Positions 1 to 36,787 of a stretch of DNA of 64,000 bases are shown piece after piece. The notes beneath the pieces were generated by a model. The model saw only the letters and a program-made list of their open reading frames with translations, made no database searches and had not been told where the DNA came from. Both the position numbers and the translations under genes were made by a program. The stretch's first letter is position 1, and the number at the start of each line of letters is the position of its first letter. The stretch is from assembly GCA_963696945.1 (NCBI GenBank), contig CAVOME010000008.1, positions 69,767 through 133,766 of the forward strand, in the 5' to 3' direction. The DNA comes from an uncultured bacterium. Its GTDB lineage: Bacteria; Actinomycetota; Thermoleophilia; Solirubrobacterales; 70-9.

Positions 1-3000
1 CTGCGTGTAGGCGGGCTCATCGGTCTCGTTGTGCCCGTAGCGGCGGTATCCGATCAGGTCGATGACGATGTCTCGCGCCCAGCGCTCGCGGTAGGCCATC
101 GCGAGCCTGATCGCCGCGATGCATCCCTCGACGTCGTCGGCGTTGACGTGGATGATCGGGACGTTGAATCCCTTCGCCATGTCGGACGCGTAGGGGGTCG
201 AGCGGGCCTCCTCGGGGTCGGTCGTGAAACCGACCTGGTTGTCGGTGATCAGGTGGACGGTGCCACCGGTCGAGTAGCCCTTCAGCGACTGCAGGTTGAG
301 CGTCTCGGCCACCACGCCCTGGCCCGGGAAGGCGGCGTCGCCGTGCAGGAGCAGCGGAACGGCGAGCTCGGGATTGTGCTCGAGGCTCGGCCCCGGCGAG
401 CGAGGTCTGCTCTGCGCGCGCGCCACCGGTGACCACCGGGTCCACGAACTCGAGGTGGCTCGGGTTCGGGTAGAGCCGGACCTCGATCTGGTCGCCGTCG
501 GGGGTCGTGAACATGCCCTCGGCGCCGAGGTGATACTTGACGTCTCCGGTCCCCCCGTGCGGGATCGCCGCCATCGCCTTGACCCGCTCGAGCGCCCGCG
601 CACCCTCGAACTCGGCCATGATCGACTCGACCGGGCGGCCGAGGTTGTGAGCCAGGACGGCGAGCCTCCCGCGGTGGGCCATCCCGAGGACCACCTCCTG
701 CGCGCCGCCCTTGCGGGCGAGGGCGAGCAGCTCGTCGATCATCGGGACGACGGCATCGAGGCCCTCGATCGAGAACATCTTCTGGCCCAGGTATGCGCGC
801 TGCAGGAAGCGCTCGAACCTGAAACACCTCGATCAGCCGCGAGAGCAGCGCCTTCTTCTCCTCGTCGGTGAGAGGGGTACGGTGGGCGCCCGTCTCGATC
901 ATCTCGCGCAGCCACATTCTCTGCTGGTGCGAGGAGAGATGCTCGATCTGGTAGGCGACCGTCTCGCAGTACGCCTCTCGCATCCTGGGAAGCGCCTCGA
1001 GCAGAGTCTCGCCCGCGACTCCGATTCGCAGGATCGACGCCGGAATCTGGGCCATCAGGTCCGGCGTCAGGTTGAGCGTCTTCGGATCGATCGCCGGGTC
1101 GCCCTTGGGCTCCTTGCCGAGCGGGTCGAGCCGAGCCGCCAGGTGACCGTGCGTGCGGTAGGCCTTGAGCAGTGACGTGGCCGCCTGGACGGCCTGGAGC
1201 AGCTCGGTGTCCGGGGGCGCCGCTTGCGTGTCGGAGAGCCCGCCGGAAGCGGGCGCCGACGCCGCCGCGGGGTACGCGTTGGCGACCACGCCCGCCGTCA
1301 GCTCGAGCGACTCCGCCAGACCCTCGTAGAAGGAGTCCTCGCCCTGAAGCAGCTGATCGATCCGTCGCAGGAACGATCCCGATTCTGCTCCCTGGATCAC
1401 CCGATGGTCGTAGGTCGACGTCATCGTCATCACCTTCGACACGCCGAGGGCCTTGAGCTTCTCGGCGGGGGCGTGGGCCCACTCGACCGGATATGCGATC
1501 GAGCCCGTGGCGACGATCGTTCCCTGGCCCGCCATCAGCCGGGGAACAGACGCCGACGTGCCGAGTCCGCCCGGATTGGTGAGGGTGATCGTCGTTCCCT
1601 GGAAGTCGTCGGCGCTGAGCCTGTTCGCGCGCGTCTTGTTGATCAGCTCCTCGTAGTAGGCGTGGAAGCCTGCGAAGTCGAGCTGGTCGGCGCCCTTGAT
1701 GCACGGAACCATCAGGCTCCGTGACCCGTCCTTTCGCTCCACGTCGACGGCGATCCCGAGATTGACCCCGCCCGGCTCGATCGCCTGGGACTTGCCGTCG
1801 CTCTCCGCGTAGGACCTGCCCATGACCCGCCACTCGATCGCCGCGATGACGATCGCCCAGGCGACGAGGTGGGTGAACGAAACCTTCATCGCGCGCTCCT
1901 TGAGCGCCCCGTTCAGCGCCCGGCGTTTCGCGTCGAGAACGTCGACGGCGAGGGTGCGGAACGAGGTGGCCGTTGGGACCGAGCGGCTCTCGTTCATCGC
2001 CTGGGCGAGCATCGCCGCGGGTCCCCGCAGGGGCACGACGGCGCCGCCGTCTGGCGCCGCCGGCCCAGCGGAGGCCAGCCCCTCGCCGTTCGCTGCCGCG
2101 AGCACGTCGGCCTTGGTCACCTTTCCGCCCGGCGCCGAGCCGCGGACCGCGCCCAGGTCGACCCCGCTCGCGGCGGCGACGCGGCGGGCGACCGGCGAGG
2201 CACGGGTGCCGTCGGTCGCGCCGGCGGCGGGGGCCGGCGCAGAAGAGGTGGGCTCGGCCGGCGGCGGCGCACCATCGGTCGGCGCGCCGGCGCCGGCGGT
2301 CAACTCCGCCAGCACCTGGCCGACCTGCACCGTCTCGTCTGGTTGGGCCAGGATCCTGGCGATCGTCCCACTGGCCGGGGCCGGCACCTCGGCGTCGACC
2401 TTGTCCGTCGAGACCTCGACCACCGTCTCGCCCTGCGAAACCGCATCGCCCTCCTGCTTGTGCCATTCGAGGACCGTGCCCTCGGTGACCGATTCGCCCA
2501 TCTCGGGCATCGAAATTTGAATAACTCTCCCGACATCCTCGGCTCCGCCTCCGGTGTCGGCGGGTTGCGACGCCGACCGACCGGCAGGGTCACTCACCTG
2601 CACCGCGACTTCGTCGCTAGTGCTGGCGGCGGTGGCTTCCCCGGGCTGCGGGGACTCGGACCCGGCCGACTCATCCCCGATGTCCTGATCGCCCTCGGCG
2701 ACCTCCTGATCGGACATGCCGGGCCCCGGTTCCTGCTGGGCGTCTCCGCCGTTGGCCGAGCCCCCGTCGCCCGACGGGGCGGCGCTCGGGTCGAGCTCGG
2801 CGAGGATGGCGCCGACCTCGATCGTCTCGTCGGGGGCCTTGAGGATCCGGGTGATCACGCCAGAGGCCGGGGCCGGGACCTCGGCGTCGATCTTGTCGGT
2901 CGAAACCTCGACCACCGTCTCGCCCTCGTTGACGAAATCGCCCTCCTGCTTGTGCCATTCGAGCACCGTGCCCTCAGTGACCGACTCGCCCATCTGGGGC

Positions 3001-3026
3001 ATCTGGATCTGGACCGTTCCAGGCAT
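1..3026 (-). pseudogene. odhA: OdhA/Kgd-like multifunctional 2-oxoglutarate dehydrogenase. It has two lipoyl domains, an E3-binding domain and an E2 succinyltransferase core fused to E1o. The C-terminus runs off the window start. Two apparent frameshifts lie near 400 and 825.
   Basis: ORF 282..3026 opens MPGTVQIQMPQMGESVTEGTVLEWHKQEGD (lipoyl 1) and repeats ISMPEMGESVTEGTVLEWHKQEGD (lipoyl 2). It then carries SPVARRVAAASGVDLGAVRGSAPGGKVTKADV (E3-binding), TSTYDHRVIQGAESG (E2 core) and the E1o N-terminus AYRTHGHLAARLDPLG. E1o continues in ORF 17..778 ([36 protein letters not shown]). A third frame carries it down to nt 1 ([36 protein letters not shown]). Confidence 0.85.
2519..2634 (+). repeat. 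R1 repeat, copy A' (about 116 nt). It lies inside the odhA ORF in the orientation opposite to copy A and is read through in frame as the inter-lipoyl linker.
   Basis: The plus strand reads TGAATAACTCTCCCGACATCC..CGGCAGGGTCACTCACCTGCACCGCGACTTCGTCGCTAGTG. The 41-nt core 2583..2623 differs at one position from the reverse complement of 3082..3122. Confidence 0.8.
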
Positions 3027-3073
3027 CTAGCTACCTAAGTTTGAGTCTATGCCCTCGACCGTGCCCAAAGTGG

Positions 3074-3186
3074 ACCGCCGACACTAGCGACGAAGTCGCG
3101 GTGCAGGCGAGTGACCCTGCCGCCACGCCGGAGCCCGAACCCGCCGGAAACGTAGCCCAAGGCGAAGCTTCCGGCGGAGTTATTCA
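3074..3186 (-). repeat. R1 repeat, copy A (about 113 nt). It lies between the stop codon of the 3184..3489 gene and the odhA start.
   Basis: The minus strand reads TGAATAACTCCGCCGGAAGC..TTCCGGCGGGTTCGGGC..GGCGGCAGGGTCACTCGCCTGCACCGCGACTTCGTCGCTAGTGTCGGCGGT. Its first three nt are the TGA stop of the upstream gene. It contains a 9-bp hairpin CCGCCGGAA/TTCCGGCGG. Confidence 0.8.
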
Positions 3187-3489
3187 GCTCACCCGGGCGA
3201 CGAGGTAGACCTCGTTCGCCAGTGTGTCGTAGACGTCCTCGAGCACGAACTCGCGGGCAGGGCCGGCGTGATCGCAGAACCCGCACCGCACCGTCTGTCC
3301 TGCCGGCATTCGACCATCGGCCCCGAGCGGCAGCGCGCATCTCGGGCAGACCAGCGCGCCGTGCGCCAGGACCTGGACCCCGTCGCGGACCAGGCGACGC
3401 TCCGCCCCCGCCTGTGAGCCGTCGACGCGGCCGAGCCGGGTGCTCGGCTGACCGGGGTCTCCCGGGTCGGCGGACAGATGAATACCCAC
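3184..3489 (-). CDS. Small zinc-ribbon protein (two CxxC pairs), function unknown.
   Basis: The tail of ORF 3184..4521 reads ..ALVCPRCALPLGADGRMPAGQTVRCGFCDHAGPAREFVLEDVYDTLANEVYLVARVS. Third-position GC is high and there is a GTG at 3489. The rest of the long ORF is antisense to the acyl-CoA reductase gene. The start is uncertain. Confidence 0.45.
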   Translation of the reverse strand: MGIHLSADPGDPGQPSTRLGRVDGSQAGAERRLVRDGVQVLAHGALVCPRCALPLGADGRMPAGQTVRCGFCDHAGPAREFVLEDVYDTLANEVYLVARVS

Positions 3490-3564
3490 CTCGCAGAGTG
3501 TAGGGTCAGGTCCGACGCGCAACCCGTCGAGGCCGCACAGAGCCTCCGACTCCAGGAGTGCAGA

Positions 3565-5686
3565 TTGAGCTACTTCGTCACCGGCGCCACAGGCTTCATC
3601 GGCCGCAATCTGGTTGAGCGGCTGCTCGAGCGCCCCGGGACCGTCTATGTGTTGGTTCGCGAGGGCTCGAAGGGCCGGCTGGCCGAGCTTCGGAGCCGCT
3701 GGGGGGTCGACGAGGATCGGGTCGTGGCCGTGGTCGGAGACCTTTCCCAGCCCGGCCTCGGTGTCTCGGACGAGGCGGTTGACAAGCTGCGCGGCAAGGT
3801 CGACCACCTGTTCCATCTCGCCGCGGTCTATGACATGACGGCCGACGCCGAGAGCCAGCGGCTCGCCAACGTCGAGGGAACACGGCACATGGTCGAGTTC
3901 GCCGAGGCCGTCGAGGCGGAGCGGGTCCACATGGTCAGCTCGATCGCCGCAGCCGGCCTCTACAAGGGGACCTGGCGGGAGGACATGTTCGACGAGGCCA
4001 CCAACCTCGACACGCACCCCTACTTCCGCACCAAGCACGACTCCGAGGCGATCGTGCGGACCGAGTGCACTCGCCCCTGGCGGGTCTACCGGCCGGGGAT
4101 CGTCGTGGGGCACTCCGAGACCGGCGAAATGGACAAGATCGACGGCCCCTACTACTTCTTCAAGCTGATCCGCCGGATTCGAAACGTCGTGCCGCAATGG
4201 GTCCCGATGCTCGGCGTCGAAGGCAGGGAGATCAACCTGGTCCCGGTCGACTTCGTGGCTGCGGCCATGGACCACATCGCCCACCAGGACGGACTCGACG
4301 GCCGTGCCTTCCACCTCACCGACCCGAAGCCCAAGAGCGCCGGCGAGGTGATCGACATCTTCGCGCGGGCCGCCCACGCGCCGCAGTCCTCGACGCGCGT
4401 TCCACCGGTCGCGGTGGAGACGCTGGCACCCCTGCTGAAGGCGCTGGTCGATGGTGCCGCCGGTGGGCCTGGCCGCGAACAGCGTCCTCGCCGACTTCGG
4501 GATTCCGCGCTCGGTCCTCACCTACATCAACTACCCGACCCGCTTCGACTCCAGGCAGGCCCAGGCGGCGCTCGAGGGCAGCGACATCAGGGTGCCGCCG
4601 CTGGAGGTCTACGCGGACAAGCTGTGGGACTACTGGGAGCGCCACCTTGATCCGGACCTGTTCCGCGACCGGACGCTGGTCGGCGCCGTGAGAGGGCGGG
4701 CCGGAGCCGTCGGTGGCGTCACCCAGATCATCGAGCAGCAGATCCCGGACGAGCTGCTGCGCGTCGGCCGCCGGTTCCTCGGCACGGTCTCGCTCGAGCA
4801 GGCGGTGCGCGGGCGGGTGGTGATGGTGACCGGAGCCTCGTCGGGGATCGGGCGCTCGGCGGCGCTGAAGATCGCCGATGCCGGCGGCATCGTCCTGCTC
4901 GTCGCCCGCACCGCCGAGAAGCTCGAGGAGATCCAGGCGCAGATCGCCGACGGCGGAGGGACCGCGTACGTCCATGCGTGCGACCTCTCCGACATGGACG
5001 ACATCGACCGGATGGCCGACGAGGTCCTCGCCCAGCATGGCCACGTGGACATCCTGATCAACAACGCCGGTCGCTCGATCCGGCGCTCGATCGCCCTCTC
5101 CTACGACCGTTTCCACGACTTCGAGCGGACCATGCAGCTCAACTACTTCGGGGCGGTGAAGCTGATCCTGAAGCTGCTGCCGGTGATGCGCGAGCGGCGC
5201 TCGGGCCAGATCGTGAACATCAGCTCGATCGGGGTGCAGACCAACACCCCGCGCTTCTCGGCCTACGTGGCCTCGAAGGCGGCGCTCGACGCGTTCTCGC
5301 GCTGTGTCGCCTCGGAGATCGTCGACGAGGGGGTGGCGATCACCACGATCCACATGCCGCTGGTGCGAACGCCGATGATCAAGCCGACCAAGATGTACGA
5401 CCGCTTCCCAACCATCACCCCCGAGGAGGCGGCCGACATGATCTGCGAGGCGATCATCTACCGGCCGAAGCGGATCGCCACCCCGCTCGGGACGCTCGGC
5501 CAGATCCTCTACGCGATCAACCCGAAGTCGATCGACTACATCCTGAACAGCGCCTACAAGCTGTTTCCCGACTCTCGTGCCGCTCGCGGCGAGAAGACGG
5601 AACCGGCCGGTACGCAGACGGCCAACGAGGAGGCGTCGCGCCAGCAGGTCGCCTTCGCCTATCTGATGAGGGGCGTTCACTGGTAG
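3565..5686 (+). pseudogene. Two-domain fatty acyl-CoA reductase (Acr1/FcrA-like: NAD-dependent reductase domain plus SDR domain). One frame switch lies near 4445.
   Basis: ORF 3478..4650 carries YFVTGATGFIGRNLVERLL..LFHLAAVYD..YFRTKHDSE. ORF 4451..5686 carries VMVTGASSGIGRSAALKIA..NNAG..YVASKAAL. An in-frame TTG at 3565 is preceded by AGGAG at 3554. Confidence 0.8.
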
Positions 5687-34034: not shown

Positions 34035-35905
34035 TCACCCTCGCCGCGCTCGACCTTGTAGGGGTCCGACCGGCTCCAGTCGATGAACTGGTTGAGGGTC
34101 TCGAGGCCGAACTCGACCGGCATCGCGAGATCCTTGACCTTCGCCTCGAACGGATCGGTGCCGACCCGCTCGACGAAGGCGTTGAACTCCTCGCCGTCTT
34201 CGCGGCCCTCCTCGTAGAAGCGGACCCAGCGCTCGACCGCGTCGGGAACCCGCTTGGCCGGGAGCCGCGCCTTCAGCCTGTGTCCATAGACGATCTCGCC
34301 GCTTTCGTAGTGGCCGCCAAGGTGGGCGATGTAGGCGGGGATCGCGCGGCCACCCACCTTGATCGAGGCGCCGTAGAAGCCGATGTTGGCGATGTGGTGC
34401 TGCGAGCACCCGTTCGGGCAGCCGCTCATCTTGATGTGGATCTTCCTGGTCAGGGGGTCGCTGATCCCCATCCCCTCGATGCGCTCCTGAACCGCCTTGT
34501 TGAGCCCCATCGAGCTGGTGATGCCGAGCTTGCAGCTGTCGGTGCCGGGGCAGCTCACCACGTCGGTGATCTCGCGGGGACCGGCGTCGCCGAGGCCCAG
34601 CTCGCGGAGTCGCTGCCACACGTCGTAGACGGACTCGTCGCGGACCCAGCGCAGAACGAAGTTCTGCTGCACCGAGGTTCGGGCATAGCCGCCTGTGTGC
34701 TCGCGCATGATCTGGGCGAGGCCGCGGAGCTGCTCGGGTGTCAGATCGCCACGGGTGACCTTGACCTCGACGGCGCTGAACCCCGGCTGGCGCTGGGCAC
34801 GCACGTTCGCCTGGCTGAATCGGTCGAACTCGGAGTGGTCGCCGTTCGGGCTGCCATGGGCGGGGGGCTGCGGCGGGGCCTGGGCCTCCTCGTCGTCGAT
34901 CAGCTTCAAGCGCTCGACGTCGAAGTCACGCTCGGCGACCCAGTCGCCCTGGAGCTCCTCATCGACCATCTCTCGGAAGGCGTCGATTCCGACCTTGTCG
35001 ACCAGCACCTTGATCCGGGCCCGGGCGCGGTTGACGCGCAGCCATTCCTGGCGGTCGAAGATGCGCCAGCAGGCCTCCGAGATCTTCAGGTAGTCGCCGT
35101 TGTCGAGCTCGGCGAACTCGTAGAGGGTGGGGGCGATCCTCGGCATGATCGAGGTGCCGCCGCCGACCCGGATCTCGACCCCGCGAACACCGTCGCGGAG
35201 CTTCGGGATGAAGCCGATGTCGTGAATGCCGGTCATCGCCACGTCCTCGTCGGTGGCCGTGAAGGCGGTCTTGACCTTTCGCGGCATCAGCTGGGTGGTC
35301 GGGTGGCGGACGAAGTAGCGCACGTAGGCCATTGCGTAGGGGGTGATGTCGAAGTGCTCGCCCTCGGTGATCCCGGCCCAGGGGTCGCCGGTCACGTTGC
35401 GGATCGTGTTTCCGCAGCCCTCACGCGATGAAAGCCCTGCGTCGCTGATCAGCCGGATGAACTTCGCGGCGTCTGGGAGCGGGATGTGATGGATCTGGAT
35501 GTTCTCGCGGGTCGTTATGTGGCCGCGGCGAAGGGGCGCCCAGCGCTCGATCGCCTCGGCGAAGGCGTCCATCTGCTCGGGGGTGACGCCGCCGAGTGGG
35601 AGCTTGACGCGGATCATCTGGACGTCCGGCTGGCGCTGTCCGTAGACGCCCTGCTTGAGCCGGAAGCCGATGAACTGGTCCTCGGCGGTCTCCCCGCGCA
35701 TGAACTTGCCCGCCTCGGTATCGAAATCATCGAACTCGCGCTCGAGGATCGGAATCACATGGCCGGGGACGTTCTCGTAGGACTCAGGGTTCTCGAGCGA
35801 GCCGACCTTGCCCTTTCCGGCCTGGTCCGTCTTGCTCACCTCGAGCTTGTGCTCCGCCGCGACCTTCGCCGCCGCGGAGCGGGAATCGACCGCCGTTGGC
35901 TCCAT
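34022..35905 (-). CDS. sir: Ferredoxin-dependent (NirA/SirA-type) sulfite reductase.
   Basis: MEPTAVDSRS..LSSREGCGNTIRNVTG..VVSCPGTDSCKLGITSS..KMSGCPNGCSQHHIANIGF. ATG 35905 is preferred; the ORF-track extension to 36190 covers noncoding repeat sequence. Confidence 0.9.
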   Translation of the reverse strand: MEPTAVDSRSAAAKVAAEHKLEVSKTDQAGKGKVGSLENPESYENVPGHVIPILEREFDDFDTEAGKFMRGETAEDQFIGFRLKQGVYGQRQPDVQMIRVKLPLGGVTPEQMDAFAEAIERWAPLRRGHITTRENIQIHHIPLPDAAKFIRLISDAGLSSREGCGNTIRNVTGDPWAGITEGEHFDITPYAMAYVRYFVRHPTTQLMPRKVKTAFTATDEDVAMTGIHDIGFIPKLRDGVRGVEIRVGGGTSIMPRIAPTLYEFAELDNGDYLKISEACWRIFDRQEWLRVNRARARIKVLVDKVGIDAFREMVDEELQGDWVAERDFDVERLKLIDDEEAQAPPQPPAHGSPNGDHSEFDRFSQANVRAQRQPGFSAVEVKVTRGDLTPEQLRGLAQIMREHTGGYARTSVQQNFVLRWVRDESVYDVWQRLRELGLGDAGPREITDVVSCPGTDSCKLGITSSMGLNKAVQERIEGMGISDPLTRKIHIKMSGCPNGCSQHHIANIGFYGASIKVGGRAIPAYIAHLGGHYESGEIVYGHRLKARLPAKRVPDAVERWVRFYEEGREDGEEFNAFVERVGTDPFEAKVKDLAMPVEFGLETLNQFIDWSRSDPYKVERGEGECAV

Positions 35906-35913
35906 GCGACGGG

Positions 35914-35919
35914 ATATTA
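35914..35919 (-). promoter_or_regulatory. -10-like TAATAT box 8 nt upstream of the sir ATG, suggesting a leaderless or near-leaderless transcript.
   Basis: The minus strand reads ..tttgtgTAATATcccgtcgcATGgag. No Shine-Dalgarno sequence lies between the box and the ATG. Confidence 0.3.
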
Positions 35920-36186
35920 CACAAATCCCGACCGGGTTTAGGGCATTTCCCCCGGCAAGGCCGCCCTCAGGGCTGATCCGGGAAGCTCGGGACCTATTTC
36001 GGGCGCCATCCCGAATCGCCGACATCCGAGCCCTTGTCGGTCGTTCGCGACGGTGGTGGTCGAGGGCCCGGTATGAGTGCCCGTTGGCCGGCGCCATCGG
36101 CCCGTCGGAGATAGCGACGTAGTCGCCGGGTCGGGCGCGGGCCGTCACGGGCAGGGCTGGGTAGGGGAGCCCATTGGCCCGCGAAA

Positions 36187-36305
36187 CCACCCGTCGGAGC
36201 CAGCGACGAAGTCGCGGTCATGGCGCCTACGTCCTGCCGCCCCGTAACGCGCCCGAGCCCGACGACACCGGAGCCGGAGGCGAGGATGTCGTCGGAGTTA
36301 TCTCA
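36187..36305 (-). repeat. R1 repeat, copy B, starting at the dodecin stop codon.
   Basis: The minus strand reads TGAGATAACTCCGACGACATCC..TGTCGTCGGGCTCGGGC..GGCGGCAGG..ACCGCGACTTCGTCGCTGGCTCCGACGGGTGG. It has the same block order as copies A and A'. Confidence 0.75.
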
Positions 36306-36512
36306 GTCGATCTCGGTGCCCTCGATCAGGAACGCGACCCGGACGTGGGCGCGGTACTCGTCGAGGTTCTCGCCGCGGATCCCGGTGCTGACGATGTCCA
36401 CGGCGCGGATGTTCCGAAGCGAGCTCTGGGCGTGCTTCAGCGCCTGCATCGCCGCGTCGTCGCTGGACGTCTTCGAGCTTCCGACGAGCTCGATGATCTT
36501 CACTACGGCCAC
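36303..36512 (-). CDS. Dodecin-family flavin-binding protein.
   Basis: VAVVKIIELVGSSKTSSDDAAMQALKHAQSSLRNIRAVDIVSTGIRGENLDEYRAHVRVAFLIEGTEID. A GAGGAGGAG RBS precedes GTG 36512. Confidence 0.8.
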   Translation of the reverse strand: MAVVKIIELVGSSKTSSDDAAMQALKHAQSSLRNIRAVDIVSTGIRGENLDEYRAHVRVAFLIEGTEID

Positions 36513-36556
36513 TGTCTCCTCCTCTTGCTCTGTTGAACGAGTACGTCGTGGATGTT

Positions 36557-36787
36557 CTACTCCGAATGCGCTGACGGGGCGAGGCCCTCCGAGCGGGACA
36601 CCCCCTCCCGAAGCGCGGCACGCTGCCACGGGCTCTGCTCGGGGCCACGCCGCGGGGCCGCGGGGGCCGTATCGGCGAAGAACCGCTCGAGCGCCGCGAC
36701 GATTGCGGCGGCCTCGGTCTCGGACGCGGGCTTGGTGAGCAGCTCTATCCGCGACGTGGGCGGTCGGCGCTCGCCGTTGCGTGCCAT
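36557..36787 (-). CDS. Small hypothetical protein, possibly acyl-CoA carboxylase epsilon-subunit-like.
   Basis: MARNGERRPPTSRIELLTKPASETEAAAIVAALERFFADTAPAAPRRGPEQSPWQRAALREG. Third-position GC is high. The resemblance to AccE/PccE is by pattern only (E-rich, AAIVAAL, then a Pro/Arg tail with W). Confidence 0.35.
   Translation of the reverse strand: MARNGERRPPTSRIELLTKPASETEAAAIVAALERFFADTAPAAPRRGPEQSPWQRAALREGVSRSEGLAPSAHSE

Follow-up and report, generated by a model that had tools for sequence, protein, structure and literature searches.

Repetitive extragenic palindromic (REP) sequences, together with the BIME and REPIN forms and the RAYT transposases, are found in Enterobacteria and Pseudomonas as extragenic hairpins in high copy number, located inside operons and at the 3' ends of genes. 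They are single palindromes of 20–40 nt and have a GTAG tetranucleotide at the hairpin. Rickettsia palindromic elements (RPE) are hairpin repeats of about 100–150 nt that also occur in frame inside protein-coding genes. MIRU are intergenic operon units that overlap flanking stop or start codons and form variable-number tandem repeat arrays of whole units, oriented with transcription. The pneumococcal BOX element has a modular A-B(n)-C organization with a variable number of sub-modules. The Tuberculosis Rho-independent terminator motif (TRIT) is restricted to Mycobacterium, where there are ~150 dispersed copies per genome; it is a single palindromic hairpin, present in either orientation, with a very narrow placement around the stop codon that is partly within the coding sequence (Gardner et al. 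2011, PMC3152330). The subject of this analysis is R1, a structured sequence of about 102 nt that is present in a 64-kb stretch of DNA from an uncultured bacterium of the Solirubrobacterales (the window; contig CAVOME010000008.1). R1 is a new repeat of the REP/TRIT/RPE-like kind. Its copy B (36303..36200) lies between the gene for dodecin and the sulfite reductase gene sir. With a probability of about 80%, copy B is a dispersed R1 repeat that represents a lineage-specific insertion and is not a regulator of sir, in a family whose copies are exchanged.

R1 is similar to TRIT in that it is actinobacterial and dispersed, is conserved in both sequence and structure, and is located at gene termini in both orientations. 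The narrow distribution at stop codons is also TRIT-like, with 22 of 28 stops at positions -6 to +4 of R1 and 8 of 27 in the terminal CTAG. R1 differs from TRIT in that it is an asymmetric unit of ~102 nt with two different hairpins and a conserved unpaired block, has modular partial copies as well as in-frame copies inside genes, and has a Solirubrobacterales host; a terminator role for R1 is only putative. Imperfect complementary stems, clusters of whole and partial units, and conserved positions with varying units are features that R1 has in common with REP/BIME. R1 may also resemble REP in its many, mostly extragenic copies and in a conserved tetranucleotide by the hairpin, which is CTAG in R1 and GTAG in REP. 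However, the R1 unit is compound, measures 102 nt and keeps its parts in a fixed 5'-to-3' order, and only its 3' module (a 16 nt hairpin plus TAG) is of REP size; overlap with a stop codon or the end of an open reading frame (ORF) is far commoner in R1.

Some members are similar to RPE, e.g., copy A', which is in frame in a linker of OdhA and has orthologs in three genomes. Unlike RPE, most copies, including copy B, are intergenic at stop codons, there are stops at both ends of the element, and the host lineage is unrelated. R1 resembles MIRU in stop overlap and BOX in its reiterated 5' and 3' modules, but it has no sequence relation to either and, unlike MIRU, shows no orientation bias.

The R1 family and its conserved structure

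A species-representative genome collection was scanned with the pattern GGCAGG-N10-18-CGCGACTTCGTCGC, which gave at least 119 loci, and nhmmer profiles built from the window copies were run on these pattern-matched loci. Among the pattern matches listed, at least 104 R1 copies are present in 60 sources. All true R1 matches among those listed are in Solirubrobacterales, "uncultured Actinomycetes" or soil metagenome-assembled genomes (MAGs) of Actinomycetota; the proteobacterial and other loci represent bare pattern matches and are not R1. The family extends to at least 24 assemblies, of one species each, in addition to the window, and extra copies, including tandem and partial ones, are found at many loci beyond those selected by the pattern. 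A search of plasmids yielded no R1, and a search of viral contigs yielded one chance match and no R1 copy. No described repeat of this kind was found in the literature for Solirubrobacterales or Actinobacteria. R1 is a dispersed, non-coding, structured repeat family of ~102 nt in soil Solirubrobacterales genomes.

The structure was analyzed with an alignment of 55 full copies. R1 begins with (G)GAATAACT, which is followed by hairpin P1, an 11-bp stem around a 3-bp NNN-TNC-NNN mini-hairpin; the sequence of P1 varies and its pairing is kept. The middle of the element, between P1 and hairpin P4, is variable and sets three subfamilies that coexist within genomes and are common between genomes. The order after the middle is GGCAGG, P4 (GCGAC-TTC-GTCGC), TAG and the semi-conserved CCCGGGCGG. 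The tetranucleotide CTAG is found straight after P4 in nearly all copies, in a set for which the search pattern favoured an intact P4. A consensus fold was sought between P1 and P4, and no pairing common to the three subfamilies was found; the middle is therefore treated as unpaired.

Both P1 and P4 are recovered by RNAalifold. In a 19-pair structure, standard pairs make up 94.4% of 1022 cells in the 55 copies, compared with 81.9% after shuffling, a value reached in 0 of 500 shuffles. Double-sided changes are present in 116 cells against 45.7 expected from shuffling, again with 0 of 500 shuffles reaching the observed number, in a control that takes no account of kinship among R1 copies. When the 3' partner columns are slid by 1–3 positions, pairing drops to 31–52%. 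The 55 copies have 37 different P1 stem haplotypes, and a compensatory variant of P4, GGGAC/GTCCC, is present in three aligned copies.

Two other types of element were considered. The 5' end of R1, GAATAACTCCGCC, and the reverse-complemented 3' end (CTAGCGACGAAGTCG) are unlike, i.e., there are no terminal inverted repeats as would be found in a miniature inverted-repeat transposable element. With respect to integron attC sites, GAATAAC and GTT(A/C/T)GGG fit RYYYAAC and GTTRRRY only partly, and copies are scattered singly and not in cassette arrays. An attC-like AAC/GTT extension of P1 was rejected; its two A-T pairs hold in 27–29 of 55 copies and its C-G pair in 49 of 55.

A family hidden Markov model (HMM) run on the 64-kb window detects three full R1 copies and one partial copy, and no more. 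The 17-mer ACCGCGACTTCGTCGCT is found exactly at 2602..2618(+), 3086..3102(-) and 36202..36218(-), and again with 3 mismatches at 36113..36129(-); this number of matches was reached in none of 100 dinucleotide-preserving shuffles. A repeat search shows arms at 2518-2629/3075-3186 (112 nt, 77% complementary) and at 2521-2573/36249-36301 (53 nt, 81%). The earlier sequence-only reading of this DNA had proposed the element after the dodecin gene as a third copy with compensatory changes in its hairpin. Copy B is indeed a true third member, and it has all the blocks common to copies A and A' in the same order. The hairpin arms are CCGCCGGAA/TTCCGGCGG in copy A and CCGACGACA/TGTCGTCGG in copy B. Between them three pairs are changed on both sides, C-G to A-T, G-C to A-T and A-T to C-G, exactly as had been claimed, and the excess of double-sided changes given above extends this observation to additional copies. 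The reading frame through copy A' is open in the OdhA frame.

Copy B between dodecin and sir

The minus-strand sequence of 36305..36187 is TGAGATAACTCCGACGACATCCTCGCCTCCGGCTCCGGTGTCGTCGGGCTCGGGCGCGTTACGGGGCGGCAGGACGTAGGCGCCATGACCGCGACTTCGTCGCTGGCTCCGACGGG, and the sequence directly 3' of the dodecin TGA is GATAACTCCGACGACA. Copy B overlaps this TGA, and 397 nt separate the dodecin stop from the sir ATG (35905); the earlier reading was accurate on both points. In copy B all 11 of the 11 P1 pairs are formed, and the stem encloses an apical mini-hairpin, GCC-TCC-GGC (36281..36273). The 5' end is ~5–6 nt shorter than that of the L122 allele, and the copy ends in CTGG where the family norm is a terminal CTAG. 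Its 3' extension, CTCCGACGGGTGG, repeats the 5' CTCCGACG of the same copy.

A Sir protein search of metagenome contigs yielded 80 loci with 72–90% identity. Outside the window species, dodecin is directly upstream of sir in 37 of these loci, and 36 of the 37 are without R1. The sole R1-like variant among the 37 spacers is that of L128, which has a different first hairpin. The spacers of the nearest relatives are 55–130 nt in length. The shortest, the 55-nt spacer of L124, consists of approximately the block TAAATGCCCTAAAGCCGGTCGGGATTTGTGTAATAT with ~8 nt between it and the ATG, and has no hairpin after the dodecin stop; the block is common to the closest clade. Soil-metagenome contigs of relatives join position 35948 straight to 36302/36303 and thus skip 353–354 nt, and in RNA contigs of relatives the similarity breaks off exactly at the dodecin stop. 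The absence of R1 in relatives and the contig joints indicate that the DNA from copy B down to 35949 has been inserted between an intact dodecin gene and an intact putative sir promoter. The comparison of loci shows copy B as a lineage-specific insertion right after the dodecin stop, in the recent ancestry of the window species. Copy B arrived with, or before, the partial duplication of its 3' module and the tail module described below, and all of these lengthened the spacer from ~55–130 to 397 nt.

The conserved block next to sir has the consensus AAATGCCCTAAA(G/C)CCGGTC(G/A)GGATTTGTGTAATAT, with an AAATSCC..GGGATTT inverted repeat. An exact 11-mer, TTTGTGTAATA, is present in 15 of 40 sir-upstream sequences (the window and two same-species contigs included), and near-variants are found in further close relatives. 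This 43-nt block, judged by its sequence and position, is likely to serve the sulfate-assimilation operon as promoter and operator, the transcript being leaderless or nearly so. It is ~250 nt downstream of copy B. All of the inserted DNA is upstream of this putative promoter/operator and is therefore not a leader, riboswitch or small RNA (sRNA) of the sulfate-assimilation operon. A promoter consensus scan of the dodecin-sir spacer gave no match.

RNA data consist of assembled metatranscriptome contigs. A soil metatranscriptome contig of 235 nt (X26) is ~96% identical to the window (6 mismatches, 4 gaps) from 36336 to 36104. It covers the dodecin 3' end, copy B and the second core, and ends just beyond the second small hairpin. 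The contig agrees with co-transcription of copy B with dodecin, and R1 may form a 3' hairpin tail of the dodecin mRNA.

The 3' core recurs 89 nt nearer sir, as had been noted before, and this recurrence belongs to an imperfect direct repeat that extends further and has a period of 89 nt (Table 1). The duplication contains the P4 module and 45 nt of adjoining sequence. The partial copy is also matched by the family HMM at 36126..36098 (E = 0.006), and in strain L122 the hairpin of the second core is a perfect GCGAC-TTC-GTCGC. Reiterated 3' modules are found in L073 and L060 and reiterated 5' modules in L034, L083 and L104. Since reiterated modules recur across the family, the duplicated 3' core represents a family behaviour and not a device specific to this locus. 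Nearer still to sir, another repeat that is less common than R1, here called the tail module, carries the motifs CCCCTACCCAGCCC and GTCGCGAACGACCGAC..ATGTCGGCGATTCG. Its homologues within the DNA searched (L060 1186-1298, 1325-1433 and 7932-7980) are always beside R1 copies.

The locus has further structural variation. In L120 (ENA contig_51579, ~2573-3615) there is an inverted duplication, in which dodecin and R1 face a second dodecin and R1. The centre of symmetry is within the tail-module hairpin, and the duplication is probably a fold-back assembly or read artefact at this hairpin. Other, unrelated hairpins are found after the dodecin stop in L126, L129/L130 and L125/L128. The hairpin of L125 and L128 has the stems CCGGCGGCTCC/GGAGCCGCCGG and a 29-nt loop that is reverse-complemented between the two; in L128 an R1-type 3' half is joined to it. 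The loop inversion and the fusion suggest that hairpin modules can be separated and can insert either way round. At L153, L164 and similar loci, which belong to a more distant clade, the dodecin-sir spacer is filled by a rhodanese-like ORF of ~140 aa.

Table 1. Positions of R1 copies, their parts and associated features; coordinates are those of the window except where a locus (L) is named.
Feature	Position	Strand	Description
Dodecin ORF	36512..36303	minus	69 aa; Pfam Dodecin called on the identical protein in L120-L123
Dodecin TGA stop	36305..36303	minus	Its final base forms aligned column 1 of R1 copy B
R1 copy B core	36303..36200	minus	(A)GATAACT ... GTCGCTGG; nhmmer 2.5e-27, family alignment
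Hairpin P1, copy B	36259..36295	minus	Arms CCGACGACATC (36295..36285) and GGTGTCGTCGG (36269..36259); RNAalifold, pair counts
GGCAGG block	36233..36238	minus	No variation among collected copies, partly since the search pattern demanded GGCAGG
Hairpin P4	36203..36215	minus	GCGAC-TTC-GTCGC; most conserved part of the family
3' extension	36187..36199	minus	CTCCGACGGGTGG; semi-conserved (family consensus CCCGGGCGG)
Partial second R1 3' module	36098..36129	minus	GCGAC-TAC-GTCGC, then TATCTCCGACGGG
Imperfect tandem duplication	36063..36215	minus	36215..36153 vs 36126..36063; 76.6% over 64 nt, period 89 nt
Tail module (second, rarer repeat)	35991..36110	minus	Includes hairpin CGACCGACA..TGTCGGCG
Conserved sir block, likely promoter/operator	35906..35948	minus	AAATGCCCTAAACCCGGTCGGGATTTGTGTAATATCCCGTCGC; outside R1, marks the edge of the inserted DNA
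-10-like TAATAT	35919..35914	minus	8 nt before the sir ATG (35905..35903)
R1 copy A	3075..3186	minus	Flanked by odhA and by a small zinc-ribbon-like ORF whose stop is the TGA in TGAATAACT
R1 copy A'	2518..2629	plus	Antisense; in frame, forms the linker between the two lipoyl domains of OdhA
R1 in ribosomal-protein operons or upstream of secA	L011 700-910, 5222-5325; L070 582-835, 5127-5241; L034 5788-5935

Copy replacement at orthologous sites

Locus L121, which has an identical dodecin protein, is 99.6% identical to the window, R1 included. A comparison of the window with L122 gives a different picture. The dodecin gene is identical (210 of 210 nt), the rest of the spacer is 95% and sir 96% identical, but R1 is only 80% identical, with 18 mismatches and 7 gap columns over 120 nt. 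The L122 stem is CCGCCGGC/GCCGGCGG in place of CCGACGACA/TGTCGTCGG, and its 5' junction is TGAGGAGGAATAACT. For this ~four-fold local excess of structure-preserving differences, the best explanation is replacement of R1, or its gene conversion, by another member of the family. Copy B is no nearer to its L122 ortholog than to its paralogs. Variant letters inside R1 in metagenome runs were not used as alleles of the locus, as the contigs concerned match the repeat alone and are probably other R1 copies.

The same type of turnover is present elsewhere. Copy A' is a mosaic, with a 5' half nearest to copy B (84%) and a 3' half nearest to copy A (82%). At six more orthologous sites in other genomes, different subfamilies are found, including short and long forms, and at each site the identity of R1 is lower than that of the flanks. 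Copy A' has orthologs in the odhA linker at L058:5856, L067:1517 and L088:7483, where flanks are 70–85% and R1 61–73% identical; the stems differ yet stay paired. Identity of R1 copies is 75.6% within a genome compared with 69.5% between genomes. These comparisons show copies that persist at orthologous sites while, to judge from their sequences, they have been exchanged between subfamilies.

This bears on the proposal in the sequence-only reading that compensatory change in the hairpin reflects selection on a fold. The proposal stands in so far as pairing is kept family-wide. The differences between copies are due mostly to old subfamilies and the replacement of copies rather than to step-wise evolution at the dodecin locus.

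A tentative explanation, with somewhat less than even odds, is that R1 has been spread and homogenised at the DNA level in the manner of REP/BIME or TRIT, by a putative enzyme and by gene conversion. The P4-CTAG module would be the likeliest site of protein recognition. At the dodecin locus, the hairpins may act at most as a 3'-end stabiliser or a factor-assisted terminator before the sir promoter.

Placement at gene ends, alternative explanations and significance

Genes around R1 copies were called by a method based on third-position GC content (GC3), and the stricter counts are used. Among 28 copies with a co-oriented upstream gene, 22 have a stop codon at -6 to +4 relative to the first base of R1; it is either the gene's own stop, 0–3 nt before R1, or a TGA or TAA made by (T)GAATAA. 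In four further co-oriented cases a 5' partial copy is situated between the stop and R1. Opposite-strand genes on the 3' side (n = 27) stop in the terminal CTAG in 8 cases, which reads TAG on both strands, stop 12–46 nt away in another 8, and read into or through R1 in 11. A check by hand of L111 shows that the TAG of a membrane-protein gene abuts R1 and that a convergent DEAD-box helicase gene stops in the CTAG; the 5' flank of R1 in L027 was also verified by hand. Both flanks could be classified for 32 copies, of which 21 are between co-directional, 9 between convergent and 2 between divergent genes. R1 shows no preference in orientation relative to neighbouring genes. Copies are found inside a ribosomal-protein (spc-type) operon, antisense to the genes and at orthologous places in two species, and some are just upstream of secA. 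Gene-spanning copies are present at L067:1517, L058:5856 and L056, and three of the four spanning copies represent the odhA-linker site. CTAG ... CTAG flanks, which might represent a target-site duplication, are found at L027, L111, L116 and L112, and the 3' CTAG is near-universal whatever the flank.

This placement raises the possibility that R1 is mainly a gene-end module selected by the host, i.e., a TRIT-like, factor-assisted bidirectional terminator or 3'-end protector on the stop codon, with dispersal being secondary. Copy B would then end dodecin transcripts ahead of the sir promoter. The position of the 22 stops, the enrichment between convergent genes and scarcity between divergent ones, and the intact hairpins at orthologous sites despite sequence turnover point in this direction, as do the unrelated hairpins that occupy the same place after dodecin in L126, L129/L130 and L125/L128. 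The narrow distribution at stop codons and the combined conservation of sequence and structure are also found in TRIT (PMC3152330). However, neither hairpin has a U-tract and the terminator scan of the spacer has no match, L124 is without any hairpin after the dodecin stop, and the 21 co-directional copies include those in ribosomal-protein operons and in frame in odhA, where termination would be harmful. Fixed positions and stop-codon placement favour a function over purely selfish spread, but the copies internal to operons and genes, the lack of a U-tract and the hairpin-free spacer of L124 argue against an obligatory terminator role. A primarily host-selected module is possible, with odds clearly below even.

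Rather unlikely is a strict REP- or PATE-type mobilisation of R1 as single-stranded DNA (ssDNA), in which an HUH/Y1 enzyme similar to RAYT or IS200/IS605 would recognize subterminal hairpins, especially CTAG with GCGAC-TTC-GTCGC. The element has a hairpin near each end and no terminal inverted repeats, and on the opposite strand the 3' module reads 5'-CTAG and then the hairpin. This arrangement resembles the GTAG-tagged REPs of the REP/RAYT system. A persistent G.T wobble in P1 (54 G.T against 6 A.C stem cells) would also fit, but a single pair accounts for 41 of the 54. Similarly, the sense strand gives a slightly more stable P1 (-23.0 compared with -21.8 kcal/mol, p = 0.0007), but the whole element folds equally well on either strand; evidence for strand-specific folding is suggestive only. 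The orientation of R1 shows no bias relative to local GC skew, a proxy for the replication strand (41 vs 46). No HUH/Y1 gene or other transposase was seen in 11 multi-copy loci inspected without a family-library scan, where only housekeeping-looking genes (ribosomal proteins, SecY, SecA) are found.

The earlier reading implied a link between copy B and the sir-cysH-sat-cysC operon, and a structured, covarying element in a 397-nt spacer upstream of sir could represent a cis-regulatory RNA, i.e., a riboswitch, leader or sRNA. This link does not hold up. R1 is absent from 36 of the 37 other orthologous spacers, and it is far upstream of the conserved sir block, whose TAATAT ends 8 nt before the ATG. 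Moreover, R1 follows many unrelated genes in either orientation. The suggestion that the element belongs to no known riboswitch or sRNA class agrees with Rfam 15, which gave two tRNAs only for the whole window at the gathering threshold, nothing for 35900-36560 at E <= 10, and chance-level matches only for 2450-3250, all with E >= 0.3. A regulatory RNA of the operon is very improbable. Recent local segmental duplication with chance complementarity, for which the inverted pair A and A' (445 nt apart, 3' halves 82% identical) could be cited, is refuted by the spread of the family to at least 24 other species, by covariation above that of every shuffle, and by the fact that copies in other genomes are at least as near to copy B as A and A' are.

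Several points weigh against the reading of copy B as an inserted and exchanged dispersed repeat. The search pattern makes GGCAGG and the P4 core look more invariant than they are; the independently found copies of L122 and L128 have P4 intact, and the L122 allele has GGCAAG at the GGCAGG block. The strain comparison is with one 1.25-kb metagenome contig (L122), X26 is a single low-depth contig that could be DNA carry-over, and the GC3-based gene caller is crude. The persistence of positions with intact hairpins over 15–30% flank divergence agrees with a host function no less than with selfish spread. A U-tract is lacking after either hairpin, and a simple intrinsic-terminator scan of the spacer has no match. 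No transposase or terminal inverted repeat and no clear target-site duplication was found, with the empty-site comparison for a target-site duplication at copy B blurred by the extra inserted DNA, and the mobility of R1 is therefore deduced from distribution and presence/absence only.

A more speculative proposal, and an improbable one as it stands, is that R1 is a mobile "stop-and-end" cassette. It would supply its own stops, TGA/TAA 5' and CTAG (on both strands) 3', as well as a hairpin, GCGAC-TTC-GTCGC-TAG, for recognition by a protein, and would have been long kept at fixed gene ends of Solirubrobacterales and refreshed by subfamily exchange. If true, there would have to be a dedicated factor for the invariant 3' module, whether an HUH-type enzyme or a protein that acts in termination or binds RNA.

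The analysis removes a false lead, in that the structured element upstream of the sulfate-assimilation operon is read here as an inserted repeat, and the real sir control region is likely the 43-nt block by the ATG. The features of R1, i.e., the hairpin plus CTAG module, the covarying main hairpin and stops at both ends, may be used for repeat masking in assembly and annotation of MAGs, to mend gene ends that run into the element, and to seek a protein that recognizes the 3' module. The strain-level exchange of a hairpin next to an identical dodecin gene offers a route to the study of repeat homogenisation. R1 enlarges the small set of bacterial stop-codon repeats (TRIT, REP, MIRU) with a member from an uncultured lineage that is widespread in soil.

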